From the IMG/VR virus record IMGVR_UViG_3300007512_001664, positions 136,820 to 200,819 of that record: a stretch of DNA of 64,000 bases; one strand, 5' to 3'. Under the pieces are notes generated by a model that worked only from the letters and a program-made list of their open reading frames with translations, searched no databases and was not told where the DNA came from. Shown one piece after another: positions 14,117-63,138 of the stretch. Position numbers and translations under genes: made by a program. Positions within the stretch are counted from its first letter, which is position 1. The number at the start of each line of letters is the position of its first letter. Source of the stretch: a virus (lineage: Duplodnaviria > Caudoviricetes).

Positions 14117-14122
14117 GTAATT

Positions 14123-14150: not shown

Positions 14151-14155
14151 CGGAT

Positions 14156-16798: not shown

Positions 16799-16805
16799 TC
16801 CTTAT

Positions 16806-18051: not shown

Positions 18052-18066
18052 TATATAAATTTATTA

Positions 18067-29972: not shown

Positions 29973-30026
29973 ATCTTTAAATATTTATTGCAATTTACCT
30001 AGATCGAAATCAATAATTAACAGTTA

Positions 30027-30830
30027 TTGGTGATAAAAATATTTACAGGATGGAGTAATCCCGGTGGTTCTACTACAGCATTTATTAATTTATGCAATTT
30101 ATTTAATAACAACGGTCATGAATGTATAATGTACGGTCCTCATGACTGGCATCTCGATAAATGTAATGGTGCAAAGTTACAGACTGCAACCACTAAAGAA
30201 TCAGATAAAGTTATATATCACTTTTTACATGTAAGAAAAACTAGACCTAATGTTGATAAATTTATTTTAAGCTTACATGAAAAAGAGCTATATCCGTTAA
30301 AGCAAACACCTGTTCATATTTTTGATAAAATACATTTTTTAAATAAACAGCAGTTACTATGGCACGAAGCTCATACTATAAAAAATTTATCTTGGTTTAT
30401 TTGCGGTAACGTAAATGAAGATTTAAAACCTTTTAACAAACCTAAACAAAAAATTGCTGGTATTATAGGTAGTATTGATAAAAATAAACAAGTACATGTT
30501 TCTATAGAGAGAGCTATAAAAGATGGTCATACTGATATTCGAATATACGGGACAATAAATGATCCTGATTATTACGAAAGTGACGTAAAACCTGTTATTG
30601 AAAAGTATTCTAAACAAGTCAAACTAATTGGTTATGTAGAAGAGAAACAAACAATATATGATACCATAACTGACGTGTATCATTCGTCATTATCCGAAAA
30701 TGCTTCTCTTGTATCAGATGAGTGTAAGTTAACTGATGTAAGCTTTCATGGTAATGAAAATATTATAGAACAAAGTTTGTGGTCGAATGTTGGTATTTTA
30801 AAGATTTGGAGAGATCAATTAGAGTTATGA
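30027..30830 (+). CDS. GT-B glycosyltransferase-like protein (start probably GTG at 30030)
   Basis: PGGSTTA, GIIGSIDKNKQ, VYHSSLSENASLVSDEC (GT4 ExF-x7-E-like). Confidence 0.7.
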   Translation: MVIKIFTGWSNPGGSTTAFINLCNLFNNNGHECIMYGPHDWHLDKCNGAKLQTATTKESDKVIYHFLHVRKTRPNVDKFILSLHEKELYPLKQTPVHIFDKIHFLNKQQLLWHEAHTIKNLSWFICGNVNEDLKPFNKPKQKIAGIIGSIDKNKQVHVSIERAIKDGHTDIRIYGTINDPDYYESDVKPVIEKYSKQVKLIGYVEEKQTIYDTITDVYHSSLSENASLVSDECKLTDVSFHGNENIIEQSLWSNVGILKIWRDQLEL

Positions 30831-31552
30831 GCAATATTATTCAAACATTATGGATCGGAGATACACTTTCATGTATGGAGATTCTGTCTTTAAATTCGTT
30901 TGTTAAAAACGATATGGAAATTCATTTATATTGTTATGAAGACATAAAGAATGTACCAGATGGTGTTATCATAAAAGACGGTAAGGATATTCTTCCTAAA
31001 GAAGATGTTTTTGCTTATCAAGTGGGACCTGGTAAGGGCTCATATTCTGCTTTTTCTAATTATTTTCGGTATAAACTATTGTACGAAAAGGGAGGCTGGT
31101 GGGTTGATACTGATATGGTCTGCTTACAGCCATGGGAATTTGAAGACGAATATGTATTTTGCTCAGAGGAAGACTACGATACACATAAACCTATATTAAA
31201 CACAGGAGCCATTAAATGTCCGAAGGGAGATAAGTTAATGGATTATTGTTATAATGAGTGTTTAAAGAAAGATAAAAAAACATTAGAGTGGGGAATTGTC
31301 GGTCCTAGGTTATTGAATGAAGCTGTAAACAAATTTAATTATAATGAGTATATTAAACCTATACATACTTTTTGTTTTATTGCTCCCTTTAGATCAAATT
31401 TGTTCATCACTCCAGGCAAAGTAATGAAACCTAGTAATAGTATATACGGATTACATTTATGGAATGAAGCATGGAGACGTATAGGTTTAGATAAGAAGGG
31501 TACTTATCCACCGACTTCAATCTATGAGCAATTAAAAGCAAAATATGTATAA
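30827..31552 (+). CDS. GT32-like DxD glycosyltransferase
   Basis: IQTLWIG, FSNYFRY.LLY..GGWWVDTD, GPRLL, HLWNE; ATGA overlap supports the ATG at 30827. Confidence 0.88.
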   Translation: MSNIIQTLWIGDTLSCMEILSLNSFVKNDMEIHLYCYEDIKNVPDGVIIKDGKDILPKEDVFAYQVGPGKGSYSAFSNYFRYKLLYEKGGWWVDTDMVCLQPWEFEDEYVFCSEEDYDTHKPILNTGAIKCPKGDKLMDYCYNECLKKDKKTLEWGIVGPRLLNEAVNKFNYNEYIKPIHTFCFIAPFRSNLFITPGKVMKPSNSIYGLHLWNEAWRRIGLDKKGTYPPTSIYEQLKAKYV

Positions 31553-33185
31553 TATAGTATTTTTAGTTAATAAACAATATTTTGATACTAAAATGTCTCG
31601 TGTTAGGTTTCATTCTATACGAGCTTTATTTGATCATGTAGATGTTAACGGTATATATACTGGTCCGGGTTGGGATAATTGGGATTCTGGTTTATTAGCA
31701 CAGGAGAATTTAGATAATATCCTTCAAGGAGATGAATGTCATTTAGTTATTGGTTATAAACCTCTTGAGATTTCTGGTTTTGCGGATATTACTTATACTA
31801 AATGTATTCGTTATAATGAAATGTATGATAAACAATGGACCTTAAGAGAAATAACTGAGAGTAAAGCTAATGTTATTGTATGTCATCATTATAATGACTA
31901 TAAAGAATATATAACTATCTTAAAAAATAAAAAACTTAATCATATTAAATCTTTAACATGGGTCCCCCATAGCGCAGAGTCTAGTATATTTAAACCTAAA
32001 CCTGAAATAGAAAAAAAATATGATGTAGCATTAGTTGGTGCCACAAATGTTACAACAATGTTAGGCGAGCATTATCCTTTAAGAGCAAGAATGGCTAGAT
32101 TACTTAATTTAATGCCATCAAAATATAAATGGGCAGTTATTCCTCATGTCGGTGGATCACATTCTGATGCATATACAGATAAATATGCACACGATTTTGC
32201 AGACAAAATAAATTCTTCGAAGATTATTATTACAGATAGTGGTGCACCTAAATCTAGGTTTGGAAAATATATAGAAGTCCCTATGTGCGGGGTCGCCTTA
32301 GCGGGTGATGTATACGATGATCATCCAAAAGATGTCGATCTGTTAAAATCTTTTTTGATTGATATTAATATGCAAATGTCTGATCAAGAAATTATTAAAA
32401 AACTTATTTATTATTTAGAAAATGACTCTGAAAGAGAAAAAAAAGTAAACTCCGGTATTCAGTATACTAAAGATTTTACTCAAGAAAGATATGCAGAGAG
32501 ATTTATTAACATATTAAGCAGTATTCGAAAAAAACCTAGAGTTAATTATTTTGATTTAGGCTTACATACTGGTTTAGAATTGAAGTATGTTCTTACTCAC
32601 ATATTAACGCCTCATAAAAAGGTAATAGATTTTAAAACTTACGGCTTCGAGGCATCTGAGAAGTTCGCCCTACGTCTCGAGGAGCAATATCATCCCCAAC
32701 CAGAGTTAAATACAACAATAATTCATAAGGCTATCTCAAATACAGAAGATAAGATTAAACTCTATCACGTTAACTTGGATATACAACCGAACGAAGTTGG
32801 TAACTCTATTTTTAGAACTAAAAATAATGTAACAGATGAGTACGAGGAAGTTAAAGGTATTATATTTTCTAAATGGTTAAAAGAAAACGTACCTGATTAT
32901 GAAGAGCATTTTAATATTTTAAAGGTTAATATAGAGGGTGCGGAATGGCATTTATTTAACGACATGGTAGATAATGATATGTTACAATACTTTCCGGTTA
33001 TTTTAGGAGCGGGTCATGACGTGGATAAAGTCTCTGAACTTGATTCTGACAAATATTGGAAGCTTATTAAAGACAATAATATAAACATTCATAGATTTGT
33101 AGCTGATTGGCGCCCGGAACTGAATGCGAATATATCTGAGATAATAAGAAAGGAGTTTAAATTATGGAAACAAAATCGGATATAG
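31545..33185 (+). CDS. GT-B glycosyltransferase (YkvP-like) fused to an FkbM-like methyltransferase
   Basis: KYDVALVG, KYIEVPMCG in the N-terminal half; FDLGLHTG, GFEAS, LKVNIEGAE in the C-terminal half. Confidence 0.75.
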   Translation: MYNIVFLVNKQYFDTKMSRVRFHSIRALFDHVDVNGIYTGPGWDNWDSGLLAQENLDNILQGDECHLVIGYKPLEISGFADITYTKCIRYNEMYDKQWTLREITESKANVIVCHHYNDYKEYITILKNKKLNHIKSLTWVPHSAESSIFKPKPEIEKKYDVALVGATNVTTMLGEHYPLRARMARLLNLMPSKYKWAVIPHVGGSHSDAYTDKYAHDFADKINSSKIIITDSGAPKSRFGKYIEVPMCGVALAGDVYDDHPKDVDLLKSFLIDINMQMSDQEIIKKLIYYLENDSEREKKVNSGIQYTKDFTQERYAERFINILSSIRKKPRVNYFDLGLHTGLELKYVLTHILTPHKKVIDFKTYGFEASEKFALRLEEQYHPQPELNTTIIHKAISNTEDKIKLYHVNLDIQPNEVGNSIFRTKNNVTDEYEEVKGIIFSKWLKENVPDYEEHFNILKVNIEGAEWHLFNDMVDNDMLQYFPVILGAGHDVDKVSELDSDKYWKLIKDNNINIHRFVADWRPELNANISEIIRKEFKLWKQNRI

Positions 33186-33772
33186 ATTTTATAGTAAAAA
33201 AACATCACTTAAACGATACTGGTTTAACGAGACATTATTTAACTTTATACTCTATAGTTTTAGGAATGGAGTCGAAGAATGTATTTGAATTCGGCGCCGG
33301 TTTTTCGACTCAAGCAATGGTTGAGGCGTTAAAATTAACTGGCGGTAAATTAACTAGTGTAGATAAAAGGTCTCTATCTGAGCGAGAAGATATTCCTGAT
33401 GATTTTGTAACTGATAGTAAGGATATATGGTCATTTTGCCCAGGAAACTCTTTAGATGTTGTACCTACTTTAGATCATAGTGAATGTTATGATGTTGTAT
33501 TACATGACGGTTCTCATACTGATGTAGAAGTTACTAAAGATTTAAATAATATAGCTCCATATGTTAAAAGTGGAGGATTAGTTTTAGTACACGACACAGC
33601 TCATTATGATCTCGGTCCTGAAATGAGACGAGGCCTAGCAAATAGTGATTTAATTAAAAAATATAAACACGACGGAACAACATTACCTTATGGTTACGGT
33701 CTGACTATTGTAAAAATATTTGATAACCCTGATAATAATAAAAAAGTTAACATACTATGGAGAAAAGAATAA
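33164..33772 (+). CDS. class I SAM-dependent methyltransferase (Methyltransf_24-like)
   Basis: FEFGAGFS, VLHDGSH, GGLVLVHDT. Confidence 0.85.
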   Translation: METKSDIDFIVKKHHLNDTGLTRHYLTLYSIVLGMESKNVFEFGAGFSTQAMVEALKLTGGKLTSVDKRSLSEREDIPDDFVTDSKDIWSFCPGNSLDVVPTLDHSECYDVVLHDGSHTDVEVTKDLNNIAPYVKSGGLVLVHDTAHYDLGPEMRRGLANSDLIKKYKHDGTTLPYGYGLTIVKIFDNPDNNKKVNILWRKE

Positions 33773-34722
33773 CATTTCTTACAACTCATCGTGACTTCAA
33801 CACAGGCTCTTACAGGATCTGGATTCATGATCTTAATAATTATTTTCAACAATTAAATATACCCTCTCAGATTGCTCATGATATTGGAGATGAAGAGATT
33901 GTTATTGTTGTAAAGGGTGAACTTGAATTAGCTCACAATATAAAAATAGCTCACCCAGAAAAAAAGGTAGGATTAATAAATCCCGCGATAGGTAAATATG
34001 ATTATTGTGATTTTCTTATTGTAGGTTCGATAGAAGAACAAGCAAGTTTATCAATGAACAAAAATGTATTTTTGTATCCGTTAATTGAAGAATTATATCA
34101 AAATATAGATATAAAAGAACATACTGATACAGATGTATTACGTTTTTGCTTTCATGGTCATTACCCTCATTTAGCTAAGTTTGATCCACATGTCAAACTC
34201 GCATTGGAAGAATTTTCTAAAGAGAGGGAAATTGAGCTGCTTATTATTCATGGCCATCCAGAGTTTGATTGGCAAATTGGTCGACCGGATATAAAAATAA
34301 AATATAAGCCATGGCATGCAGGTACAATAGCTCAGAATATTCTATCAGCTGATATAGGATTATGCCCTAATGTTACATATATAGATGATTATAAGCGAGA
34401 TCAGGTTATTGATACTGGAGCATATGACACGGATTATGTAGTTAGGTTTAAAAATAAATCTAACGCTGGTAGAGCGTTTGTTTTTCATCAATTAGGGTTA
34501 CCTGTTGTAACAGATCTTACTCCCAGCAACTTACATATTCTAGGAAACCCTGAACATGGTTTAATTGCCGCAGATAAAGACGGGTGGCTAAAGGCATTTA
34601 GACAGCTATCATCTTCTAATAACAGAAACGAAATGGCATTAAAGGCGAAACAAGAATTTGACAGGCTTTATGATCCGTTAGTATGGGCGAAGAGAATATA
34701 TACACAGCTAAATGAGTTATAA
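33757..34722 (+). CDS. glycosyltransferase-like protein (GT-B)
   Basis: GSYRIW, ADIGLCP, KSNAGR..LGLPVVTD. Confidence 0.6.
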   Translation: MEKRITFLTTHRDFNTGSYRIWIHDLNNYFQQLNIPSQIAHDIGDEEIVIVVKGELELAHNIKIAHPEKKVGLINPAIGKYDYCDFLIVGSIEEQASLSMNKNVFLYPLIEELYQNIDIKEHTDTDVLRFCFHGHYPHLAKFDPHVKLALEEFSKEREIELLIIHGHPEFDWQIGRPDIKIKYKPWHAGTIAQNILSADIGLCPNVTYIDDYKRDQVIDTGAYDTDYVVRFKNKSNAGRAFVFHQLGLPVVTDLTPSNLHILGNPEHGLIAADKDGWLKAFRQLSSSNNRNEMALKAKQEFDRLYDPLVWAKRIYTQLNEL

Positions 34723-35344
34723 AGAATTAGTTTCAAAATATGGCCGTGGTTTAATGAGTCATGTTCAGTATACTGAAATAGCTAAAGAGTTAGAGCCACA
34801 CTGTCCTTGTAATTTACTAGTTTTCGGTTTAGGAGACGACTCTCATTTGTGGCAAAACTTAAACATTAAGGGTGTAACAGTTTTTTTAGAAGATGATCAA
34901 TCTTGGATAGATAAAATTTCAAATAAAAGCACAGAAGATTGTTCATATTTTGAGAATACTAATGAATTAACGGTACATCATATAAATTATAAAACAAAGA
35001 TACAAGATTATCATCAAATAAATCTCGGTGTTAGAGATGATTCATTTTTTGATGAGGAAGAAATTAAAATCGATTTACCTTCTGAAGTAACGGATATTTT
35101 ATGGGATTTTATAATTGTAGATGGCCCGTTAGGTCATCAACCACCACGGCCATATAATGGACCAGGTCGGATGAGTAGTATTTTTTCCGCTTATTCATTG
35201 ATAAAAGAAGATGGCATTATTGTTATAGATGATTATAATAGAGGTATTGAAAAAACATATTCAGATCATTATTTTGGGAAAGAAAATTTATTTAAAATGG
35301 TAGAAGGAAAGGTAGGTTTTTTTAAAAATGCAAAAAAGAGATAA
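34712..35344 (+). CDS. DUF579 (GXM/IRX15-like) polysaccharide O-methyltransferase-like protein
   Basis: CNLLVFGLGDDSHLW..LN..G.TVFLEDD..W, WDFIIVDGP.G, GPGRMSSIFSA. Confidence 0.8.
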   Translation: MSYKELVSKYGRGLMSHVQYTEIAKELEPHCPCNLLVFGLGDDSHLWQNLNIKGVTVFLEDDQSWIDKISNKSTEDCSYFENTNELTVHHINYKTKIQDYHQINLGVRDDSFFDEEEIKIDLPSEVTDILWDFIIVDGPLGHQPPRPYNGPGRMSSIFSAYSLIKEDGIIVIDDYNRGIEKTYSDHYFGKENLFKMVEGKVGFFKNAKKR

Positions 35345-36071
35345 AGGTATAATTTATACAGTTTATAATGCACTGGGTAATATGGAATTTTTTAGAGAAT
35401 TAAGTATCTCTGTAGAGTCTTTTAGAAAATTTCATCCTGATCTTCATATTACTTGCTTTTCTGATATGAAGCCAGATGAGTTATTAAAGTTAGTACCAGG
35501 TATTGATGAATGCATACAAATTAATTGCCAGATATTAAGAGCAAAGGTCGATGTACTTAAGCATTCTCCATATGAAAAGACATTGTTCCTTGATACAGAC
35601 ACAGTTTTTAACTATAATGTTTACGACATATTTGATATGTTAGATGAATATGAGCTAGTTATTACTCATTGTTTGGCTAGAAAGAGAGAAAAATATTCAA
35701 AATGTATACCTGAATATAAAAACATTCCATATGCTTTTTCAGAAGTTAATACTGGTGTTTTAGGATTTAAAAAGTGTGATAATATAGATAACTTATTTGA
35801 TCTTTGGCCGAAATATTATCGTAAGTATTACAATGTTTGTCCATATGATCAACCTACATTTAGAGTTTCTTTATGGGAATCAAAAGCTAGATTATATATT
35901 TTACCTCCAGAGTATAATGCTAGGAGTAAACAGAACAGAGAAAAACAAAGAACGTTTCATCATGAATTTGGTCATGAGCATCTTAGAGAGAGAATTCTTC
36001 ATATGCATCATAAACAAAAAAATCTCGATTCAGCATTACAATATTGCTTAGAGAATTATCTTGAATATTAA
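35328..36071 (+). CDS. GT-A (GT8-like) glycosyltransferase
   Basis: SPYEKTLFLDTDT, NTGV, DQPTFR, EYN. Confidence 0.78.
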   Translation: MQKRDKGIIYTVYNALGNMEFFRELSISVESFRKFHPDLHITCFSDMKPDELLKLVPGIDECIQINCQILRAKVDVLKHSPYEKTLFLDTDTVFNYNVYDIFDMLDEYELVITHCLARKREKYSKCIPEYKNIPYAFSEVNTGVLGFKKCDNIDNLFDLWPKYYRKYYNVCPYDQPTFRVSLWESKARLYILPPEYNARSKQNREKQRTFHHEFGHEHLRERILHMHHKQKNLDSALQYCLENYLEY

Positions 36072-37669
36072 TGATTTGGACCAATACATCTCTTTTTGAT
36101 TCTCTTTTACCAAAAGAGCTAGTAACAACTACTCCAAGTAAAGCTACGTCAATTATATTAGGTGCTCCGCCTATAGATATAAAATTATTCCCTAATGTTA
36201 AATTTGTTTTTCGTGCAGGAGTTGGTACAGATAATGTAAATTTTTCTTCTGACATACAAGTAGAGTTTCCTTCAGTAAAAACTAAGAATTACATCTATGA
36301 AGAAACTGCAAATTTTACTTGTAGTTTAATATTTAAAATGTTATATGATGGTATAGGAGACTTAACATCATGGAGTAGTACTCAAAGACACGTTCTTACA
36401 AATAAGACTCTTCTTATTATCGGTCTAGGTAATATAGGACAAAGAGTTAAACATAAAATGGCTCCGTTTATTAAAAATATATTAACTTATGATATTTTAA
36501 ATGATGATAGACCTCCTGATTACAGTAAAGCTGATATAGTTACTCTTCATATACCTTATACTCCTCAAAATAAGAATTTTATTAATAAAGAAAATCTTAA
36601 GAGATTTAAATCTGATGCTATTTTAATTAATACGGCTCGCGGTCCTTTAGTTAATGAAGATGATCTTTACCATCACTTAAAAATTACTAACATGCGTGCC
36701 GCGTTTGATGCTTTTTGGGAAGAGCCGTATACAGGTAAGCTTACTGAATTTAAAAGTGATAAGTTTTTCATGACACCTCATATAGCTAGTTCTAGTATAG
36801 AGTTTATTGAAGGTTGTTACGAAGATTTTAAATCACATCATGTACAAATTGCCGGTGCCGCTCGTCATCTGACGGATAAAACCCCGGAACTAGATAAAGC
36901 CATAGAGTATACGGCGGGGTCGTATACTAACTTCTTAAAAGGTAAGAAAGTTATTATTATTGGCCCAGCACAGTATGTTACTACTAAACCGTTCTATGGT
37001 TTTGGTGAAAAAATAGATAAAGAATTTGACGTTGTAGTAAGATTGAACAGAGGGTTAGATGTCATAGATAAGTACAAACCATATATCGGCTCTAAAACAG
37101 ATGTATTTTATAATTGTCTTATAGAGCATAAAGATAATGGAGGTATAATAGATATTAATAGACTTAAAGATCATAACATACAGTGGGTATGTACAATACC
37201 ACATTCTGATATTAAAGGTAATTGCCATAATAACAGGTTAAGTCCGATGGTCAATTTACAAACCGTATCTAAGATAGCAAACAATTTTAATTTTCACGTA
37301 ATGGATTATAGATTGTATGGAGAATTAAACAAAGGAGTAGCTTGTAGAGCTAATACTGGTTTTGCAGCGATATTTGATCTGTTAAATCGCGATGTTGAGT
37401 CTCTTTACGTTACTGGCTTTAGTTTTTATTTAGATAATTTTACACCAGGTTATAAAGAAGGTTGTACGAGAGATGAAGAGGAATTTGCTAAGCAATGTTT
37501 TGCATCTAAACGACATAATCAAGTAAATCAATGGGAGTATTCTCGTAAACATTTAAAAGATAACCCTAAAGTTATTTTAGACGACGTATTAACTAAAATT
37601 TTAAATTTAAAAACTCTTAGTAGAGAAGAATTTAATGAAAAAACTCAAGATTTATATAGTAACGTATAA
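36071..37669 (+). CDS. D-2-hydroxyacid dehydrogenase fused to a GT29 sialyltransferase-like domain
   Basis: N-terminal: IGLGNIG, LHIP, INTARG, DAFWEEP, TPHIAS. C-terminal: KKVIIIGPA..IDKEFDVVVRLN..GSKTD (sialylmotif L-like) and NTGFAAI..LYVTGFSF (sialylmotif S-like). Confidence 0.78.
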   Translation: MIWTNTSLFDSLLPKELVTTTPSKATSIILGAPPIDIKLFPNVKFVFRAGVGTDNVNFSSDIQVEFPSVKTKNYIYEETANFTCSLIFKMLYDGIGDLTSWSSTQRHVLTNKTLLIIGLGNIGQRVKHKMAPFIKNILTYDILNDDRPPDYSKADIVTLHIPYTPQNKNFINKENLKRFKSDAILINTARGPLVNEDDLYHHLKITNMRAAFDAFWEEPYTGKLTEFKSDKFFMTPHIASSSIEFIEGCYEDFKSHHVQIAGAARHLTDKTPELDKAIEYTAGSYTNFLKGKKVIIIGPAQYVTTKPFYGFGEKIDKEFDVVVRLNRGLDVIDKYKPYIGSKTDVFYNCLIEHKDNGGIIDINRLKDHNIQWVCTIPHSDIKGNCHNNRLSPMVNLQTVSKIANNFNFHVMDYRLYGELNKGVACRANTGFAAIFDLLNRDVESLYVTGFSFYLDNFTPGYKEGCTRDEEEFAKQCFASKRHNQVNQWEYSRKHLKDNPKVILDDVLTKILNLKTLSREEFNEKTQDLYSNV

Positions 37670-38528: not shown

Positions 38529-38533
38529 ACTAT

Positions 38534-38561
38534 TTGACAAACTATTGTAATTATATATATA
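38534..38561 (+). promoter_or_regulatory. possible sigma70-like promoter (TTGACA..TATATA) before the first neuA-like gene
   Basis: Perfect -35 box in a 36-bp intergenic gap; -10 register ambiguous. Confidence 0.45.
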
Positions 38562-38564
38562 AGG

Positions 38565-42337: not shown

Positions 42338-42343
42338 GAATAT

Positions 42344-50521: not shown

Positions 50522-50523
50522 AA

Positions 50524-51312: not shown

Positions 51313-52217
51313 ATATGTCAAAGTGTAATATTGCTATTTGTTTAAGCGGCGAGCCGCGATTGAGTAATTTATCGAGTGCTAGTATTAAAAGATTAAAAGC
51401 TTTTTGTTATAAGCAATATGGAGCAGATGTTAATATTGATGTATTTTATCATTTTTGGGATTCCGTAACAGAAAATATTTATAAGCAATATAAATATGAA
51501 TTTGACAGGGATAATGTTAAAATAAAATATGCAAATTCAAGTGATCTAAAAAATGAGTTTGAGCCTACTATAGGTGTATGTGAAAGTAAAGAAGAATTAA
51601 ACGACCCAATAGATAAAAGTTTTAATTATATTCACAGTTTCCTGACTAAAGACTTTATCATCAAACCAACGTATTTTAAAGGATGGTGTTCCTATTTTAA
51701 AGATTTAAAGGTATTTAGGGATATAGTAAAATATACTAATATCCCTACTCTATCACAAGTAATAAGTTTATGTAAATGTCAATTATTAAGACTTAAATAC
51801 GAAAAAAACCATAATATAAAATATGATCTAATTATTAGAACTAGATCTGATATAGAAATAAAATTACCTGAATGTGATATTATATCATATTGTAGACGTC
51901 CAAAAATGAGAATGTTAATACAATTTCCATTTGGTAATATAGATATTAAATATCATAATGATCCATTATTTTATTATACAAGATATGTGGATCTCCATTT
52001 CCAGTGTTGTTTTTTTCTTTCGACATCACACGTTTTAGTCGAGGGTATTTTTGATAATTATGTAGAAAAAATATACAAACAGATGTTTTCAATTGACAAA
52101 CAAAGCGATCGTTTAGGTCTGTTGACCGATCATCAGGTAATACCTCAGTTTTTCGCAAGTCAAGGGTGTAAATTTAAAATACCTTTAGACGGTATAGATT
52201 ATCGTCTAATACATTAA
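51288..52217 (+). CDS. GQPR-family paralog 5 (start probably ATG at 51315)
   Basis: IAICLSGEPRL, VFYHFWD, SQVISL, KYDLIIRTRSD. Confidence 0.7.
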   Translation: MARHPKKVNMSKCNIAICLSGEPRLSNLSSASIKRLKAFCYKQYGADVNIDVFYHFWDSVTENIYKQYKYEFDRDNVKIKYANSSDLKNEFEPTIGVCESKEELNDPIDKSFNYIHSFLTKDFIIKPTYFKGWCSYFKDLKVFRDIVKYTNIPTLSQVISLCKCQLLRLKYEKNHNIKYDLIIRTRSDIEIKLPECDIISYCRRPKMRMLIQFPFGNIDIKYHNDPLFYYTRYVDLHFQCCFFLSTSHVLVEGIFDNYVEKIYKQMFSIDKQSDRLGLLTDHQVIPQFFASQGCKFKIPLDGIDYRLIH

Positions 52218-52219
52218 TC

Positions 52220-52227
52220 TATAAATA
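52220..52227 (+). promoter_or_regulatory. late promoter TATAAATA inside the glycan island
   Basis: Exact consensus in an intergenic gap, 11 nt before ATG 52239. Confidence 0.65.
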
Positions 52228-52238
52228 ATTACATTGAT

Positions 52239-53144
52239 ATGGTGATATTAAACGACGGGTGCTCACATTCTGCAAAATCGGTAACTGATGAAGAAATCAA
52301 TTACCATGGAAGCAGAACATCTTATTGTGATTTTTTACCGGGTCAAATATATAATATTGCTAAACCAGGGACTGGTATTGATTCCTCTCGTGTTGAGAAA
52401 TTTATAAAGAAGACCGAGCTTGATAGTTTAAATAACGAATTAACACATTTTATTTTTCAAATACCAAGCCCGTCAAGACAAACCCTGTATTTAAACTTAA
52501 CTGACGAAAAATTTTTTGAAGCTCCAATGAATTATTGGACTGATAAGGCAGGTCGAGACTTGAGAGGTTTTATGAAAAAGAAACGAGAAGTGCTACCAGA
52601 GGTCGATTTTGGTTGTTCCGTTGATCATAAAACCAAATCAGCATTACGTGTCGTCAGTGTTGTTGAACTTGAGCCAGATGATTATAATAAACATTTTTTT
52701 AAATTTACGTATGATAATTTTTCATGGACTCATATTAAGGATAATTTTTGTATACCAGCTACTTTGTGGAGTACTTTAAGAGCACATACTGCTATATCAA
52801 TTAATTCATTTATTATGGATATATTTAAATCGGAAGACAAATATTTTAAAAAAGCAATAAACGAAGTAGATAGAGCGGTTCGTTTAGTTAAAGAACAATG
52901 GCCAAATATAAAAATTATATTCTTACGCTATGAAGAAAGTGGCATGCCGTTAATTTATGAGTTTTGTAAACCGTTTTATAAAAAAGACTTATCAGATTAT
53001 TGTAATAAAAATGATATAACATACATAAATGAAAAAAACTTTAATACAGAATGGTTCCGTTTAAATAATCTTACGAACGATACTCGACATCCTAATGATG
53101 AAGGAGCAAAATTAATAGCAGAAAAAATTAAACAGTTTTTATGA
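52239..53144 (+). CDS. SGNH/GDSL-hydrolase-like protein
   Basis: N-terminal DGCSHS (catalytic Ser block), AKPGTG, C-terminal DTRHPNDEG (DxxH). Confidence 0.7.
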   Translation: MVILNDGCSHSAKSVTDEEINYHGSRTSYCDFLPGQIYNIAKPGTGIDSSRVEKFIKKTELDSLNNELTHFIFQIPSPSRQTLYLNLTDEKFFEAPMNYWTDKAGRDLRGFMKKKREVLPEVDFGCSVDHKTKSALRVVSVVELEPDDYNKHFFKFTYDNFSWTHIKDNFCIPATLWSTLRAHTAISINSFIMDIFKSEDKYFKKAINEVDRAVRLVKEQWPNIKIIFLRYEESGMPLIYEFCKPFYKKDLSDYCNKNDITYINEKNFNTEWFRLNNLTNDTRHPNDEGAKLIAEKIKQFL

Positions 53145-53254
53145 AAAAAATATTATTAAAAATACGATTAAAGATTGCGTCTTTAAAACAATGGTATTTG
53201 CAGAAATATCATAAAAAGAGATATGATTCTGGTAATAATTATCCTTTTATGTAG
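53141..53254 (+). CDS. small basic protein (37 aa)
   Basis: MKKILLKIRLKIASLKQWYLQKYHKKRYDSGNNYPFM; ATGA overlap; not in the ORF track. Confidence 0.55.
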   Translation: MKKILLKIRLKIASLKQWYLQKYHKKRYDSGNNYPFM

Positions 53255-53262
53255 CCTGGTGA

Positions 53263-54090
53263 ATGAATTATATTTTTACCCAACATATAACACCCAGTAC
53301 AGGAAAACATCATCCCGGTATTAATATACTTTTAGACTCTATACAGTCATTAAATGATGATACAATAAGAGTAATTTTATTTTACCATGGGTATGATGAT
53401 GATCTATTTCACAAATATAAAGACTTCCTTACAATTGTAGACATTAATAATAGAGGTAACTGGATTCCAGTTATGTACTCACCAGTTCAACGATGGTATT
53501 TATATAGAAACTATATTGAACAAAATATACATAGATTTAATAACAATGATAAATTCTTTCATTGTAATAGTAAAGATACAATTTTCCAAAAAAATATTTT
53601 TAATGAAATAGAAAACAAAAACAAAACAGTGTTCTTCACAGAGCAAGACGAATTTACCATATCACATAATAATATCATATGTGGAGGTGCTATATATTTT
53701 GATACATTAGCAAACTTCCTCCAGTTTTTATCCGCATATACATCATATCAACTCATATGTATGAATAATAACAGTAAATTTAAAAGATGTGTTTATAATA
53801 GAATGGGAAAAGTAAATGATCAAGGTGTAATTAATAGTCTTGTCTATAATGAACCACGTCCTCAATATAAAATTCTTAAGAATAATTATTTGAGGTTAGT
53901 ATGTGCAATGTCGTCAATGACGCAATGTAATGAACAACCTGATATTAAAATAAAAAATAATATAATTTATATTAATAGTGTTATTCCATGTGTTATACAT
54001 CAATATGATAAATTTGTAAAAATTACTGACTTTTTTAAAAAAATTAACCTTATGTATAGGCTCTATATGGTGCCACTTTCATCTTATTAA
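53263..54090 (+). CDS. putative glycosyltransferase (GT-A-like)
   Basis: RWYLY, KDTIFQ, ICGG, DQGVIN, IHQYD pattern. Confidence 0.6.
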   Translation: MNYIFTQHITPSTGKHHPGINILLDSIQSLNDDTIRVILFYHGYDDDLFHKYKDFLTIVDINNRGNWIPVMYSPVQRWYLYRNYIEQNIHRFNNNDKFFHCNSKDTIFQKNIFNEIENKNKTVFFTEQDEFTISHNNIICGGAIYFDTLANFLQFLSAYTSYQLICMNNNSKFKRCVYNRMGKVNDQGVINSLVYNEPRPQYKILKNNYLRLVCAMSSMTQCNEQPDIKIKNNIIYINSVIPCVIHQYDKFVKITDFFKKINLMYRLYMVPLSSY

Positions 54091-55329
54091 TTTTTTATAT
54101 TGTTCCTCTACCGATATATCAGAATCCGCTAATACTCTAACATGAGGTCGGTTTAAAATAAATTCTTTAGTATGTTCATTAGCAATTTTTATAAATCGGT
54201 TAGGAATAATCATTTTATTATAATGCTCAAAACCTAATTCTGAAGCACATATACCATTTAAACCTAAAACTTCTCCGCATACGAGCTCCCCAGCAGCCCA
54301 GTTATTATCTATACCATTTTCTATTAGAAATTGTTTAGATTTTTTAATTAAATGTATAATAGTGTTAACATATTGTTTCATACTTAATAACATTTCTGAA
54401 CCAGATCCTACCATAAACCAGTCTTTCATGTGTAAGTATTGTGTTTCAGGGTTATATGTATGAGATTTTGTATTTTTACTATTCGATGTATGTAGCTTCT
54501 TCGTTATGCTCGATTTATGTGGCCTTGCTGTCATTTTGTTATTCGCATACTTAAATCTACTACAAAAAATTCTTTCCTTAGGTCCGTAGTTTGGTAACCC
54601 AGATTTATTTTTTACACCTACATCGTCTGAATGACATGATCCTTCCCAGATTTGCAAATCCCCGGTTCTACAGAAAATACCTTTATCTAAATTTTCTATT
54701 CTATTATAAAATAATTGTTTATCATTTAAGTAATCTGTTTTATTTTTATATAAGTCAGGAGTAACAAATAATACATCCGTTCTTAATCTAAAAATATAAT
54801 CATATTCCTCTCCTTCTTCTTCTACCAACTTCGCTCCCTCTTGTAATGATACAAACTGACCAAGAAAATATGTTAAATTTTTCGGTTGTGTGACTTCAAA
54901 AATAGTCTTCCTTAAACGACTGGCGTGTCTCTGTATATTATCATTGTTAAGTTTTTGAACATTGTTTATAATATCTTCTATAGTATCTGTTGGTAGTAAT
55001 TCTTTTTCTGGTGTACCGTGTTTTTCATCTAAAAATTTGTTTAATTCTTTTTTTTGTTTTTTTACTATACGGTATACATCATCGCATGTTTCTTCTAATA
55101 CAGAATAATCAGTAAAAGAATATTTTTTGGGTTTATAAGTGTCTACTATATTTGCTTTGTCTGTATCGGTTAATTTATACTCCGGATCATCAGTATTATA
55201 CGCTATTTTATCCCAAAAATGAAAATAATAATCCGTGGTGCTATTTTCGAAAGTAGTTTCTTGTATAATACTCTTATAGCTTAAATCCCAAAATCTAGGT
55301 TGTCCAAATAATACTACTGCTAATTTCAT
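54079..55329 (-). CDS. GQPR-family paralog 6 (inverted)
   Basis: MKLAVVLFGQPRF, YFHFWD, FLGQFVSL, EYDYIFRLRTD. Confidence 0.7.
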   Translation of the reverse strand: MKLAVVLFGQPRFWDLSYKSIIQETTFENSTTDYYFHFWDKIAYNTDDPEYKLTDTDKANIVDTYKPKKYSFTDYSVLEETCDDVYRIVKKQKKELNKFLDEKHGTPEKELLPTDTIEDIINNVQKLNNDNIQRHASRLRKTIFEVTQPKNLTYFLGQFVSLQEGAKLVEEEGEEYDYIFRLRTDVLFVTPDLYKNKTDYLNDKQLFYNRIENLDKGIFCRTGDLQIWEGSCHSDDVGVKNKSGLPNYGPKERIFCSRFKYANNKMTARPHKSSITKKLHTSNSKNTKSHTYNPETQYLHMKDWFMVGSGSEMLLSMKQYVNTIIHLIKKSKQFLIENGIDNNWAAGELVCGEVLGLNGICASELGFEHYNKMIIPNRFIKIANEHTKEFILNRPHVRVLADSDISVEEQYKKLIR

Positions 55330-56375
55330 TTTCTAAAGTCAGTCAAATTTCCCCAATCATGTCTTGGGCTATCATATTCCTTGTTTATTATTTCTAGTAA
55401 TTTTTTATGCTCTGGGTGCTTTGTATCAAAAATATTGTGTTCGTTAAACTGATCCTCTTTAAATGTTCCCCAATTAAATATTCTAGATGTATAAGAATTA
55501 AAATTATGATGTTCAGCTATCTTAATAAATTCAGGTATACTCTGGTAATTATTCTTTTGTACACACATATCTAATCTAACCCATGGTAATTGAAGAGATT
55601 TTATAAATTCTAAATTCTTCATTAATCGATCCCAGTCTCCCCCTACTCTAACTTTATCGTAATGCTCTTTTATACCCGCGTCTAAACTAATAATAGTTTT
55701 TATTTGTAAATTATGTATATTTTTTAATTTTGCCCATCTCTGTCGATCCCATAATACACCGTTTGTTTGTAGCATTAAGGTAATTTTTGGGTTTAGACGC
55801 GGGTTAATTTTTTTCATTAACTCAAAAAACGACGGTGATCCAAATGGGTCACCAGAACCCGTAATATTAAGAGTAACGTCATGAGGCTTACTATGAATCA
55901 TTCTTAGTAATTTGTCGTTAACTCGTAACGCATGTTCATATTGACGGGGATAGTTTTTCTTGTTATAGAAAATTTTCTGCTTCCTACAGCTAGGACACTC
56001 TAAATTACAAGATCTATCATAACATAGATTAATAGTAGAAGGTAAGTCAGCTATATCTAAATCCCATTCTACAGTTTGTTGTAATTTAGTGCCGTGTGAT
56101 CCATTTAATACGTCTTCACGTTTTGGTAGTGATTTATTTTGAATCATAGGGCATTCCTCTTTATTACACATACTAAAAGACCCATCTAGAATACTACGAC
56201 GAAACGCTTTACTAGCTTCGCTATTCCATTCTTTAGCAAAATCTAAATCTGGTGTAATTTCTCCTATTTTATTAAGGTTTACCCAGCGCGGACAGCAGTT
56301 ATATAATCCTTTTTCTTGTATTTCTAAAAAAGTCCATGGCCGGTCGCAAAACCTAGTTGAAAGATCATCTGACAT
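55326..56375 (-). CDS. radical SAM protein with N-terminal SPASM/Twitch-like Cys cluster
   Basis: CDRPW..CCPRW..C..C, CNLECPSC (CxxxCxxC), GSGDPF, TNG, SLDAG. Confidence 0.88.
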   Translation of the reverse strand: MSDDLSTRFCDRPWTFLEIQEKGLYNCCPRWVNLNKIGEITPDLDFAKEWNSEASKAFRRSILDGSFSMCNKEECPMIQNKSLPKREDVLNGSHGTKLQQTVEWDLDIADLPSTINLCYDRSCNLECPSCRKQKIFYNKKNYPRQYEHALRVNDKLLRMIHSKPHDVTLNITGSGDPFGSPSFFELMKKINPRLNPKITLMLQTNGVLWDRQRWAKLKNIHNLQIKTIISLDAGIKEHYDKVRVGGDWDRLMKNLEFIKSLQLPWVRLDMCVQKNNYQSIPEFIKIAEHHNFNSYTSRIFNWGTFKEDQFNEHNIFDTKHPEHKKLLEIINKEYDSPRHDWGNLTDFRK

Positions 56376-56418
56376 GTATAATTAATTACAAGAATGAACA
56401 CTTATTTCAATACTAATT

Positions 56419-56898
56419 ATGACTGCAACTAAGACAACAAAGACTAAACCTAAAACAAAGAGAGCCGCCGCAAAGGATGTTGATCCAGGTGAGCTCAAGG
56501 ATCCTCTTACTGATAGTATGTTCGAAAATGTAGATATTTTTTACAATGGAGCTGCATATAAACCTGGCAAGAAAGATGTACAAGAAATCTCATTTCTAGG
56601 TACTAAAACAATTCAAGCAAAGGTTAAACCTAATCTTTCTGTTTTTTGGAATCCGTTAATCTGGGACTGGACTAAAGTACCTGATAAGGAAGCATATGAA
56701 ATAAAGTATAAGCGGAAGTGTCAAGCTATTTACTTTAAGGAAAAGGTTTTTCTTGTAGAAAAATCAAAGATTAAAAAAGGTATCGTTAATGATGAGTTTG
56801 TTGATACTGCCGAGCTTCCAATTGGTATTGTTGTTTATTGGTCCGCGGAAGCCGATACATGGGAAATGCTAGGTTATAAAGAAACTCTATTGCGATAG
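56419..56898 (+). CDS. hypothetical protein (159 aa)
   Basis: Clean ORF divergent from the radical SAM gene. Confidence 0.65.
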   Translation: MTATKTTKTKPKTKRAAAKDVDPGELKDPLTDSMFENVDIFYNGAAYKPGKKDVQEISFLGTKTIQAKVKPNLSVFWNPLIWDWTKVPDKEAYEIKYKRKCQAIYFKEKVFLVEKSKIKKGIVNDEFVDTAELPIGIVVYWSAEADTWEMLGYKETLLR

Positions 56899-56916
56899 TT
56901 TTTTATTTTTTAAAAA

Positions 56917-57711
56917 ATGCTCGACACACTATTTGATAAAATATATGTAGTGTGGGGTAGAGATCCTATGCGTAAAGAGTATATTAAGGATCATTTTAAA
57001 AAATGTAATATTGAAAACTATAAGTTCATTCGTAGTATCGTTCCAGATAACTTAACGGTTAAGGGTAAAAAAAATCGAAAATTTAGGTTTAAAAAATTAT
57101 GGATGGAGGCGTCAGCTAAATATGACAATACACGTCATGTTTCTGGTTCTCCTCATCCAATATCTTTAGCTGAAATATGTTGTTCATATGGTCATCTTAA
57201 AGCATATAAAACAGCGATTGATGATAATGTAAATACTTTTCTTGTAATAGAAGATGACGCTATTGTTAATGAGGAATTATGTAACAATGCATTAGAGTGG
57301 AAGGAATATATACCTGATGATTGGGACATTATTCATTTTCATTCTTGGAGGGATTTCGAAGGAGCTCGTGAACCGAACTTAAGTAAAAAAAGAAAGCAGT
57401 TTAATGATTATTTTTACATCGGTTATAGAGAGCATGGTGGTACTGTTTGCTACGCTTTAACTATAGAAACAGCAAAGCATTTATTATGGAAGTATTATCC
57501 TATAATTTTACCATCTGATGGTATCACTGCATCACTTTCTAATAATATTTTTGCTAGAAAATTTTATAATGCATATGTCTTTCGACCATTTCTATGTGAC
57601 AATACAATATTTGAAAGTCAAATAGATAATGAAAAACAAATTAGTAAAAAGTATATGACACGTCCTCAGAGGTATAAACGGGATAATTATCAATCAGGTT
57701 ATTTTAAGTAG
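56917..57711 (+). CDS. GT25 family glycosyltransferase
   Basis: IYVV..R, EICCSYGHLKAY, LVIEDDA, DWDII, GTVCYAL. Confidence 0.85.
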   Translation: MLDTLFDKIYVVWGRDPMRKEYIKDHFKKCNIENYKFIRSIVPDNLTVKGKKNRKFRFKKLWMEASAKYDNTRHVSGSPHPISLAEICCSYGHLKAYKTAIDDNVNTFLVIEDDAIVNEELCNNALEWKEYIPDDWDIIHFHSWRDFEGAREPNLSKKRKQFNDYFYIGYREHGGTVCYALTIETAKHLLWKYYPIILPSDGITASLSNNIFARKFYNAYVFRPFLCDNTIFESQIDNEKQISKKYMTRPQRYKRDNYQSGYFK

Positions 57712-58297
57712 ATTTTATAAATATACTTTTTTGTTCATCCGAAGATACTGTTGTAGATAATGTATAACCTGCTGCTACTAATTTACTTTCTAGAATACTA
57801 TCTGCTACTGTTGGTACAATAAAGACAGAATGTTCAACGTTAATATTTCCTATATTAGTAATTATTTGATCTACAGCGTTCCATTGATGCTGTAATACAT
57901 CTTTACATATTAACATGTCATACGTATTACTATTACTAAAAGTAGAAAGTATGAAGTTTTGAGTTAGAAATGTATGTGTTGGGTGGTTAGTTTTATTTGC
58001 ATTACATACAGAAGGTACCCAATCTATACCAGTATATGCTACCAAGGGGTTTGCTTTTAAGACTTGAGCTGTCCATTGCATATCTCCACAACCTATATCA
58101 ACTAGACTAGAACAGTTATTAGTAGTTATAAAGTTTTTTACCCAAGCTATTAGTTCAGTGCTATTAGCTACTGTACTACCTGGCCCGGAGCCTTGTTCTT
58201 CCCAACCACCGTTATCGTATATAAATTCCCAAGAAGATAAAACAACGTTATTTAAATCAAAAGGCCCGGTCGGGACCCATGGAGGTATCTCTGGCAT
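57704..58297 (-). CDS. class I SAM-dependent methyltransferase
   Basis: GSGPGS, VDIGCGD, YTGID, DMLICKDVLQH. Confidence 0.85.
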   Translation of the reverse strand: MPEIPPWVPTGPFDLNNVVLSSWEFIYDNGGWEEQGSGPGSTVANSTELIAWVKNFITTNNCSSLVDIGCGDMQWTAQVLKANPLVAYTGIDWVPSVCNANKTNHPTHTFLTQNFILSTFSNSNTYDMLICKDVLQHQWNAVDQIITNIGNINVEHSVFIVPTVADSILESKLVAAGYTLSTTVSSDEQKSIFIKST

Positions 58298-58358
58298 ATA
58301 AATATTTAATCACTGGATTTTCATTTTAAAGTAATATATACTATTTTTTACATTACCT

Positions 58359-59171
58359 GTGAATGCTATTTTTTACACACACCATTATGAAGACGAGTTT
58401 GTACGTGATACATTTAAAAAGCTTCAGAAGTTAAACCCTCAGTGGGATATTTATAGTATTGGTTTTAAAGGTAATAAATTACTACCCGGGTCATTAATTG
58501 CGAAAAAGGATAAATACCCTTCGAATTCTTGTATTGAGGGTGCCCTTCCAGTGGAGTGGTCAGAAGCTGATTTATTATTTTGCGAAGCATATAGACATAA
58601 ACCGAAGTATGATTATTATTTTTTTGTTGAATATGATACTATATTCAATGTACCGGTTTTAGACTTTTTCGACATAGAAGGGGAAGATTTTCTAGGCTGT
58701 AATGTTGATAATAATCCAGGTCAAGCTTGGGTTTGGATTCAAAAGTTCGAAAGCTTTATAGATCAACATAGAGATGTCTCTATGTATGATGACGATTATG
58801 GCGCGGGTGGTCAGACTACATGTGTTAGTTTTAATAACAGTACATTAAAAAATTATAGAAATGAAATTATAAAAAACAAATATTTTTATGAGCATATGTT
58901 TAGTGAGTTGAGGTTGGGTACAGCCTTAAAAAAATATACTACTTTGAAAAACATACGATCTGATATTTCTGACTATGTAAGCTGGACTACTGATGATATA
59001 ACTTATAATTTTAAGAAACCGTATTTTTATCATCCAGGTGGTAATCGATGTGTTAACAGCAAACAGATGTCAAAAGATGAATACTACGAAAGAACAGCAA
59101 AATGTTTAGATTCTGGTATTGATGTTCCGTGGACAAAAGAAGTAGAGAAAGTTGAAAAATCTGCCTCTTAA
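58359..59171 (+). CDS. putative glycosyltransferase-like protein
   Basis: WSEAD, YDYYFFVEYD (ExD), FSE, YHP; island context. Confidence 0.5.
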   Translation: MNAIFYTHHYEDEFVRDTFKKLQKLNPQWDIYSIGFKGNKLLPGSLIAKKDKYPSNSCIEGALPVEWSEADLLFCEAYRHKPKYDYYFFVEYDTIFNVPVLDFFDIEGEDFLGCNVDNNPGQAWVWIQKFESFIDQHRDVSMYDDDYGAGGQTTCVSFNNSTLKNYRNEIIKNKYFYEHMFSELRLGTALKKYTTLKNIRSDISDYVSWTTDDITYNFKKPYFYHPGGNRCVNSKQMSKDEYYERTAKCLDSGIDVPWTKEVEKVEKSAS

Positions 59172-59172
59172 G

Positions 59173-59200
59173 TTGATTATTTTTGCGGGTAATCTATAAT
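59173..59200 (+). promoter_or_regulatory. sigma70-like promoter TTGATT-N16-TATAAT, ATG 7 nt downstream
   Basis: Read directly in the intergenic gap. Confidence 0.65.
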
Positions 59201-59207
59201 ATTTAGC

Positions 59208-63126: not shown

Positions 63127-63138
63127 TAAATATTTATA

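Follow-up and report, generated by a model that had tools for sequence, protein, structure and literature searches.

The 64,000-nucleotide stretch analysed here (the window), which forms the final 64 kb of the 200,819-bp IMG/VR contig IMGVR_UViG_3300007512_001664, carries a phage-borne glycan assembly island of about 29 kb at positions 30027–59171. Its genes, named below by their start coordinates, include at least 14 that are glycosyltransferase-like, together with six methyltransferase domains, two cytidine monophosphate (CMP)-sugar synthetases, an HpcH aldolase, a mutase–pyrophosphorylase fusion, a kinase-like domain and a radical S-adenosylmethionine (SAM) enzyme. The preliminary description of this DNA had proposed an island that builds a methylated, acidic glycan, and this view holds in the form of a probably methylated chain with an ulosonic sugar. 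As the target of the assembly line, the envelope glycans of the host bacterium are tentatively favoured.

Phage origin, selection and cassette exchange

The source contig is circular, with ends overlapping by 119 bp, and is rated a complete virus (100%) with direct terminal repeats. Upstream of the island, T4-type core genes occupy the minus strand (gp32, a gp41-like helicase, UvsX, gp43 polymerase, gp46/47 and UvsW), and phoH (29172–29972) immediately precedes it, divergent from the first island gene. On the 3' side follow a DNA helicase and the tail-sheath stabiliser gp15, with portal and major head protein beyond the circular junction. Against a collection of 50,697 phage records, the gp43 DNA polymerase reaches no more than about 30% identity, and megablast of the island and the replication module against the same records returned zero matches. 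A polymerase-based search of IMG/VR recovered a whole clade of relatives at 82–99% identity, and the left arm of the island is present in DNA runs of 15 marine, seawater and estuary studies; the runs listed as holding the island include no RNA run. The carrier is an uncultured marine T4-like genus. The GC (guanine plus cytosine) content of the island resembles that of the flanking phage genes, and three independent contigs (G001, G002 and G003) hold the island at the same place between phoH and the helicase. Since the contig is circular and complete, T4 core genes stand on both sides and relatives carry the same island, this is phage DNA; a check for the host contamination that the preliminary description had considered was negative on the same grounds.

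Within the island, 34 open reading frames (ORFs) resolve into 33 genes, 30 on the plus and 3 on the minus strand, most of which overlap their neighbours by a few bases. The earlier count of about 33 consecutive genes thus stands once two ORFs are recognised as one stop-split gene, as does the statement that most encode glyco-enzymes: annotation with hidden Markov models (HMMs), as had been suggested, was run, and 26 of the 33 genes are supported by HMMs, homologues or a fold model, the seven without assignment being 30027, 39915, 43603, 50524, 53263, 56419 and 58359.

Comparison with relatives reveals a clear architecture, in which the conserved left arm (30027–42337) and a conserved right arm (54079–59171) enclose a variable middle cassette of 11.8 kb (42313–54085), delimited by blastn of G002 against this genome, a tblastn table and the gene content of the alternative cassette. 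G002 is collinear with this genome at 94–97% nucleotide identity over 115 kb, and in it 42313–54085 is replaced by an unrelated 7.2-kb set that again contains GT-A paralogues, the largest non-homologous replacement within those 115 kb. G003, at 88% polymerase identity, holds the G002-type cassette and lacks the dehydrogenase/GT29 fusion of the left arm. In comparison with G003, the ratio of nonsynonymous to synonymous substitution rates (dN/dS) is 0.05–0.31 for 15 arm genes, against 0.08 for phoH, and the arms are under purifying selection. Together with a conserved promoter, this strong selection provides sequence-level evidence of function.

That promoter, a predicted sigma70-type element of the form TTGCAA–18 nt–AATAAT at 29988–30017 on the plus strand, precedes the 22-kb main operon. 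In 13 of 15 relatives examined, the spacer differs between two unchanged hexamers, a pattern that reads as a functional footprint. Its −10 element ends 10–12 nt upstream of the start, the geometry also seen in some 20 other sigma70-type promoters of the genome. In T4, sigma70-type promoters drive early transcription, and by this analogy the main operon should be early. The late-type signal of the phage, nATAAATAwTTA, ends 5–12 nt upstream of start codons and is common before structural genes. Its sole well-placed copy in the island, TATAAATAATTA at 52220–52231 on the plus strand, has a core, TATAAATA, that stops 11 nt short of the ATG of 52239, the SGNH-like gene; a further TATAAATA copy lies 55 nt upstream of 58359. 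The late promoters formerly ascribed to the island therefore reduce to this single gene, the main operon lying behind the sigma70-type promoter. A TTGACA promoter candidate before 38565 was dropped by eye, as its −10 element would sit too near the start codon.

Several observations concern promoters more generally. At 29960–30030, the late-type motif of phoH on the minus strand overlaps the −35 element of the island promoter on the plus strand, an arrangement conserved across the clade. Genome-wide, both promoter classes end near start codons (for example at 24502, 52220, 29988, 59173 and 61455), with sigma70-type −10 elements ending 7–12 nt before the start, and Shine-Dalgarno sequences are weak; given these very short distances and weak signals, many mRNAs may be leaderless or nearly so. 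An exact late motif also precedes 24516–25682, where an acidic, proline-rich N-terminal half is fused to an HxGH cytidylyltransferase-like C-terminal half, and the product may be a late or packaged nucleotidyltransferase.

Enzymes of the arms, the cassette and the core module

All NCBIfam matches fell below the curated cut-offs and are used at superfamily level only, without specific enzyme names; for ten proteins without other matches, PHROGs gave no function. Genes lie on the plus strand unless stated. The first gene of the left arm (30027–30830) has no HMM match and a GT-B-like N-terminus by eye only; it is 70–97% conserved at the amino acid level in the clade (dN/dS 0.15), and its relatives suggest that the true start is probably the GTG at 30030. 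It is followed by a GT32-type glycosyltransferase with a DXD sugar-binding region (30779–31552; PF04488, 29.7 bits, above cut-off), a fusion of a GT-B-like (GT1-like) domain with an FkbM methyltransferase (31545–33185; PF13524 and PF05050 slightly under cut-off, TIGR01444) and a class I SAM methyltransferase of the Methyltransf_24 type (33164–33772; PF13578, E = 5.5e-16). Next come a divergent GT-B (GT4-like) glycosyltransferase (33757–34722), a GXM/DUF579-type sugar O-methyltransferase (34712–35344; PF21729, E = 2e-32; TIGR01627) and a GT8/Nucleotid_trans-like GT-A transferase (35328–36071). The GT4 label derives from the family of 33757, which has 392 relatives: 6 of 42 sampled members match Glycos_transf_1, and the family profile matches PDB entry 5I45 at E = 8e-4. 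Gene 35328 has no direct match, and its GT8 label comes from homologues at 45–53% identity that carry PF01501/PF03407. Its nearest named cellular homologue, 44% identical and from Vibrio, lies directly behind Wzm/Wzt in a polysaccharide locus that also holds methyltransferases, GT2s, GT8 and GT4.

The second half of the left arm is devoted largely to donor synthesis. Gene 36071 (36071–37669) fuses a D-2-hydroxyacid dehydrogenase (residues 1–250; PF02826, E = 2.6e-32) to a GT29-like, sialyltransferase-type domain (residues 255–532), and the fusion is missing from more distant relatives. Its C-terminal half contains sialyl-motif-like sequence and lies closest, in the Atlas, to viral PF00777 clusters (score 0.87); the GT29 assignment is accordingly a lead and not proof, and the domain has no counterpart among the cultured phages searched. 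A borderline GT2-like transferase (37635–38528; PF00535, 22.1 bits), which belongs to a widespread core module, precedes CMP-sugar synthetase 1 of the PseF/NeuA/KdsB superfamily (38565–39266; PF02348, CTP_transf_3, E = 1.7e-13; TIGR03584 below cut-off), an HpcH/HpaI class II pyruvate aldolase (39238–39918; PF03328, E = 3.8e-19) and a small conserved protein that is GDPD-like by eye only (39915–40352; phrog_34507). A fusion of a beta-phosphoglucomutase-family HAD domain with a sugar-1-phosphate nucleotidylyltransferase (40321–41721; PF13419, E = 1e-27; PF00483, E = 2e-12; TIGR02009, TIGR01208) and CMP-sugar synthetase 2 (41693–42337; PF02348, E = 1e-20; 96–99% amino acid identity in G001/G002) close the left arm. 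Both CTP_transf_3 proteins, 38565 and 41693, fall below the equivalog cut-offs of PseF and KdsB. Measured against canonical nonulosonic acid and Kdo (3-deoxy-D-manno-octulosonate) pathways, the island thus has the CMP-transferase and lacks the synthase dependent on phosphoenolpyruvate (PEP): no island protein matched NeuB, PseI or KdsA, and the HpcH aldolase is present instead.

The cassette begins with a SAM methyltransferase (42344–42940; Methyltransf_11/25 in Pfam), a TOD1/MUCI70 (DUF616) glycosyltransferase-like protein (42933–43610; PF04765, E = 6.8e-12) and a gene without HMM match in Pfam, NCBIfam or PHROGs (43603–44448). The next part is dominated by one paralogue family, whose members 1 (44448–45575), 2 (45521–46576), 3 (47162–48091) and 4 (48088–49122) are interrupted only by a Methyltransf_24-type SAM methyltransferase assigned by Pfam (46563–47165). 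Gene 49112 (49112–50521) then combines a minimal protein-kinase-like domain of the RIO/WaaY/Kdo-kinase/APH type (weak PF00069/PF03109 matches and nearest Atlas clusters) with a C-terminal GT2 domain (PF00535, E = 5.5e-10). It is followed by a gene with a DXD-like IDCD motif seen by eye only, without Pfam match or PHROGs function (50524–51312), and by the distant family member 5 (51288–52217). At the end of the cassette stand an SGNH/GDSL-like hydrolase or acyltransferase (52239–53144) and a gene without Pfam match or PHROGs function (53263–54090).

The label of gene 52239 derives from a GCS...H(P)N pattern, invariant across nine paralogues, and from weak profile matches, limited to the PDB chains 4RW0 (titled as a lipolytic protein of the G-D-S-L family) and 4C1B (which we take to be an esterase domain); Pfam gave no direct match. 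In G003, eight paralogues of this gene form a tandem array on the minus strand (13731–20014, corresponding to window position ~26355), and 4.9 kb are inserted at this position in G002. Both termini of these paralogues are conserved around a hypervariable centre, which would fit a diversifying substrate specificity.

The right arm opens with paralogue family member 6 (54079–55329, minus strand; 96–98% amino acid identity in G001/G002) and a radical SAM enzyme with a twitch/SPASM domain (55326–56375, minus strand; PF04055; NF033640, E = 1e-23; dN/dS 0.11). Divergent from the latter is a small conserved protein with a Lys/Thr-rich N-terminus and no family match (56419–56898; dN/dS 0.055), and the two genes (55326–56898) could be a pair of enzyme and partner or substrate. 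A GT25 glycosyltransferase of the lipooligosaccharide/lipopolysaccharide (LPS) type (56917–57711; PF01755, E = 7e-20), a Methyltransf_12/25-type SAM methyltransferase from Pfam (57704–58297, minus strand) and a last gene without Pfam match or PHROGs function (58359–59171) complete the arm. Just beyond it, at 59171–59208, where a DUF366 gene follows the last island gene, G001 and G002 contain some 0.9 kb of additional DNA that this genome lacks.

Most family labels of the preliminary description are retained, at different levels of support. Pfam confirms GT32, GT2, GT25, DUF616 and the radical SAM protein, and the six methyltransferase domains are accounted for by five Pfam methyltransferases (33164, 34712, 42344, 46563 and 57704) plus FkbM. 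GT8 and GT4 are supported via homologues or a family profile, GT29 through sialyl-motif-like sequence and Atlas clusters, and SGNH by its motif pattern and weak profile matches. Single-sequence and profile searches of PDB sequences with the GT29-like domain, 35328, 33757, 50524 and the GT-A family returned nothing usable, the 5I45 match having come via the 33757 family profile. Local hhalign comparison among GT-A families scored even established GT25, GT32 and GT2 proteins at low probability and cannot classify 30027, 43603, 50524, 53263 or 58359.

The six ORF products of the paralogue family (44448, 45521/46211, 47162, 48088, 51288 and 54079), which lacked database matches, are supported by modelling as glycosyltransferase-like members of a new GT-A family. 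Single-sequence AlphaFold prediction gave a predicted local distance difference test score (pLDDT) of 31, and an alignment of 22 paralogues was needed; with it, the AlphaFold2 model of 48088 reached pLDDT 87 and a predicted template modelling score (pTM) of 0.90 and adopts a GT-A fold. All strong structural matches of the model, by Foldseek and VIA-align, are GT-A glycosyltransferases: VIA-align places first an unnamed glycosyltransferase, 9u7j (Z 12.3), then ColGalT1 (11.9) and BoGT6a (11.7), followed by hyaluronan synthases, KfiA and SpsA, and the AlphaFold DB matches include TOD1/MUCI70 and WavE entries. Invariant residues of the family comprise G, R, H-W, Q-S and D...D. Two more copies occur elsewhere in the genome; the family is almost exclusively viral and unannotated, with distant matches (23–29% identity over half the length) to Synechococcus phages S-SM2, B3 and B23. 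Member 2 is split by a TAA at 46172–46174: a single A-to-T change (AAA to TAA) at 46172 divides one gene into the ORFs 45521–46174 and 46211–46576, and the gene is intact (351 amino acids) in the sister contig G001.

The aldolase stands at the centre of a core module that recurs across at least 70 other viral contigs. Relatives of the HpcH aldolase at 33–55% identity occur on at least 88 IMG/VR contigs, of which 80 were retrieved, and a census of island homologues within 10 kb of the aldolase at 71 loci outside the clade found a CMP-transferase at 51, a nucleotidyltransferase at 35, the small 39915-type protein at 33, the 37635-type GT2 at 31, and a GT29-like domain and a HAD domain at 27 loci each. 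In the contexts sampled, the CMP-transferase lies directly upstream of the aldolase, as in the island, and one contig of a metagenome-assembled genome (MAG) has a dehydrogenase after the aldolase. Other phages carry the module alongside NeuB, NanE, GT29, MptE-like proteins, formyltransferases and sugar aminotransferases, some of them holding a PEP-dependent synthase and the HpcH aldolase together. Among 185,579 species genomes, a scan with two peptide patterns only found just three close copies of the module, all on MAG contigs. A Woesearchaeota MAG contig and another module contig, both of viral appearance, adjoin Laminin_G- or C1q-like proteins of very large size, and the 'Woesearchaeota' and 'Verrucomicrobia' MAG contigs with the module may be mis-binned phage DNA. 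A linkage to tail fibres was rejected, a giant protein lying within 10 kb at only 2 of the 71 related viral loci. A literature search on phage nonulosonic acid pathways, or on HpcH with cytidylyltransferase in phages, found nothing relevant.

Further glycan genes lie outside the island. A pair encoding an NDP (nucleoside diphosphate)-sugar 4,6-dehydratase-like protein and an RmlD-like reductase, a putative 6-deoxyhexose supply, sits among the replication genes at window positions 1946–3869 on the minus strand (PF16363, E = 5e-50; PF04321, E = 1e-12; phrog_540). In genome coordinates, 42567–45736 holds a methyltransferase, an MptE/Maf-like protein above the Pfam cut-off and an epimerase, a set that adjoins the HpcH aldolase in other phages; 48504–50294 encodes a NodU/CmcH-type carbamoyltransferase; and 62397–63389 encodes an epimerase, carries a late-type motif and follows immediately on two pilin-like genes (62.4–65.4 kb overall).

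Taken as one pathway, these enzymes suggest a stepwise assembly. The pyruvate aldolase, the dehydrogenase and the two CMP-transferases would yield one or two CMP-activated 2-keto-3-deoxy (ulosonic) acids, the mutase–pyrophosphorylase fusion an NDP-hexose, and the dehydratase/reductase pair a 6-deoxyhexose. The left arm would also supply the first transferases and O-methyltransferases; the swappable cassette, with its GT-A paralogues, methyltransferases and kinase–GT2 fusion, would add strain-specific outer sugars and caps; and the right arm, with GT25, radical SAM enzyme and methyltransferase, would complete the chain. Since a polymerase is lacking and single-step transferases number at least 14, the likely product is a defined oligosaccharide without repeats that is methylated and in part acidic.

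Export, priming and the candidate acceptors

The acceptor and any export step would have to come from outside the island. None of the island proteins has a predicted transmembrane helix, and no polytopic membrane protein occurs across the complete genome. Six-frame whole-genome searches, run with positive controls, were negative for ABC_tran (PF00005), Polysacc_synt/Wzx (PF01943) and Wzy_C (PF04932), as well as for the lipid-primer enzymes Bac_transf (PF02397; WbaP type) and Glycos_transf_4 (PF00953; WecA type). The absence of flippase, Wzy/Wzz and ABC exporter noted earlier for the island is therefore borne out, and it extends to the whole genome and to the primers. Within 10 kb of the same module at the 71 other viral loci, 1,514 genes include no transporter-sized membrane protein and only two tiny ORFs with three or more hydrophobic segments, so that missing exporters characterise this class of phage island and are no peculiarity of one genome. 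The preliminary description had taken this absence as an argument for a virion target. It does not discriminate, since LPS-core and ABC-dependent O-antigen assembly also use soluble enzymes and their cytoplasmic halves look alike.

The tentative first choice among the acceptors is a host envelope glycan, remodelled by a cytoplasmic assembly line. Enzymes made early would build on a host lipid-linked precursor (lipid A-core or an undecaprenyl-diphosphate-sugar) at the inner membrane face, and host MsbA, Wzx or Wzm/Wzt would then export the altered surface glycan, so that the surface of the infected cell would change, for example blocking superinfection or keeping progeny from sticking to debris. 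This host-envelope reading is favoured because the island's families are of LPS/O-antigen type (GT25, GT8-like, WavE/TOD1-like GT-A folds, KdsB/PseF-like CMP-transferases, a WaaY/Kdo-kinase-like domain and O-methyltransferases), the 35328 homologue of Vibrio lies with Wzm/Wzt, the main promoter is early-type, the conserved arms with a swapped cassette resemble O-antigen loci, and published work reads phage transferase clusters as changing the host surface (PMC7029224, PMC12801897). Several points weigh against it. At least 14 transferases exceed what modification of an existing glycan needs, the Maf/MptE-like protein and the GT29-like domain could point to direct protein glycosylation, and the core module looks mainly viral. 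No membrane-bound seroconversion protein of the Gtr or Oac type is present, the island proteins being without transmembrane helices. The early timing is predicted from promoter motifs, and that a strictly lytic phage would gain from remodelling the surface is an assumption.

Ranked directly behind is virion protein glycosylation in the cytoplasm, a possible alternative in which the arms would make a core glycan and the cassette a strain-specific decoration. In this scheme the core module (GT29-like domain, GT2, both CMP-transferases, HpcH aldolase, the small protein that is GDPD-like by eye and the mutase–pyrophosphorylase fusion) and the Maf/MptE-like enzyme might make an aldolase-derived ulosonic acid and transfer it onto virion proteins, the cassette adding a strain-specific methylated outer glycan. 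Maf enzymes attach CMP-activated nonulosonic acids to flagellin in the cytoplasm, and the genome encodes both the GT29-like domain and a Maf/MptE-like protein above the Pfam cut-off. All island proteins are predicted to be soluble, the complete genome lacks lipid-primer, flippase and exporter, and the 71 other viral loci show no lipid-linked steps either; the module, moreover, recurs in many viral contigs and appears scarce in cellular genomes by the scan with two peptide patterns. The glycosyltransferase–methyltransferase fusions and the many O-methyltransferases parallel chlorovirus capsid glycans, and further precedents exist in giant viruses and mycobacteriophages. The island also borders the structural module, with the helicase and gp15 followed, past the circular junction, by portal and major head protein. 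It does not lie within a structural operon, however, and its main promoter is early-type, a late motif standing only at the SGNH-like gene. Neither an acceptor protein nor a protein-transferase to initiate the chain was found, the enzyme families are just as characteristic of LPS/O-antigen assembly, and we know of no virion glycoprotein reported for any T4-like marine phage.

Less probable, and on balance unlikely, is another cytoplasmic or mixed target, such as an intracellular free or lipid-bound oligosaccharide, non-virion phage proteins (for example pilin-like ones) or several targets at once. The scattering of glycan genes over the genome (the 42.6–45.7 kb cluster, the carbamoyltransferase at 48.5 kb and the epimerase behind the pilin-like genes) fits such an arrangement, and the conserved and variable parts may have separate roles; yet the main operon is one continuous block, which suggests a single pathway, and no positive evidence points to any specific alternative acceptor.

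Glycosylation of modified DNA bases by the transferases, also raised in the preliminary description, is very improbable. T4-like phages glucosylate hydroxymethylcytosine, but the complete genome lacks a ThyA-family hydroxymethylase (PF00303), in a search whose control gave matches in 10 of 14 genomes, and no DNA glycosylation system that we know of comes near 14 transferases, CMP-ulosonic acid synthesis and six O-methyltransferases. Non-functional stuffer DNA, which Sullivan et al. 2010 still allowed as an option for the LPS clusters of cyanophages (PMC3037559) and to which the premature stop in one GT-A paralogue would conform, is ruled out by the dN/dS of the arm genes, and it is rejected together with misassembled host DNA on account of the conserved promoter, the same locus on independent contigs, the phage-like GC content and the circular, complete contig.

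Relation to known glycan systems and significance

The island is the same kind of feature as the phoH-adjacent LPS clusters of P-SSM2 and relatives, and is among the richest examples of phage glycan clusters. Cyanophage LPS clusters sit in a variable region near phoH or hli03 (PMC3037559). The LPS/cell-wall clusters of cyanomyoviruses (P-SSM2, S-SSM7, S-SM2, S-SCSM1 and S-SCSM2R) are likewise carried by T4-like marine myoviruses, and like the island they span tens of kb, combine transferases with sugar-nucleotide enzymes, lack exporters and adjoin phoH. The island differs in its distinct lineage, as indicated by the polymerase, in a CMP-sugar module that uses an aldolase instead of KdsA or NeuB, and in the purifying selection and cassette exchange documented here. 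S-SCSM2R has been described with 13 transferases genome-wide, possibly a record (PMC12801897), whereas the island alone has at least 14 transferase-like genes, with more elsewhere in the genome. The host recognition cluster of pelagimyophages is hypervariable and transferase-rich and lies at the edge of the neck and tail genes, its authors' reading being O-chain modification (PMC7029224). That cluster also carries tail-fibre genes and has GT8 as its commonest glycosyltransferase family; the island, by contrast, contains no fibre gene, and its variable part consists of a novel GT-A paralogue family.

With ABC-transporter-dependent O-antigen and capsule assembly (WbdA-D type; kinase/methyl caps), the island shares soluble single-step transferases, CMP-Kdo-type donors, terminal modification of the O-methyl, phosphate or Kdo type and the 44% identical Vibrio homologue of 35328. 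Unlike a bacterial O-antigen or capsule locus, the phage lacks the WecA/WbaP primer, Wzm/Wzt, Wzx, Wzy and Wzz, and the pathway is thus incomplete without the host. Seroconverting phage modules (GtrABC, Oac) differ in turn by their integral-membrane GtrA/GtrC or acyltransferase, which the island lacks.

Among autonomous viral systems, chloroviruses and mimiviruses glycosylate their virions with their own soluble enzymes, and capsid and tail glycosylation in mycobacteriophages is reported by Freeman et al. 2023, as cited in PMC12619734 and PMC12801897. Common to these systems and the island are virus-encoded soluble transferases, donor synthesis, sugar methylation and a division into conserved and variable parts, the likeness being one of predicted gene content. 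In mycobacteriophages the genes lie in, or are co-regulated with, the structural module; the island borders that module, has an early-type promoter with a late motif only before 52239, and stands outside structural operons. Maf flagellin glycosylation and GT29/GT42 sialyltransferases share with it CMP-activated acidic sugar donors and sialyltransferase-fold enzymes (GT29-like, MptE-like), with the NeuB/PseI-type synthase replaced in the island by the HpcH aldolase.

What the island adds to these systems is the GT-A paralogue family, the arm-and-cassette architecture with a documented swap, the purifying selection and the recurring aldolase module. Marine T4-like phages were recognised as carriers of large glycan gene clusters with the earliest cyanophage genomes, and the island contributes evidence of function. 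It also offers defined targets for biochemistry: the aldolase/dehydrogenase/CMP-transferase trio, the GT29-like domain and the new GT-A family. Should the virion be the target, we know of no earlier system of this kind in a phage of Gram-negative marine bacteria, and chlorovirus and mimivirus glycosylation would gain a counterpart among bacterial viruses; should it be the host envelope, as tentatively favoured, lytic phages would be rebuilding the surface of the cells they infect.

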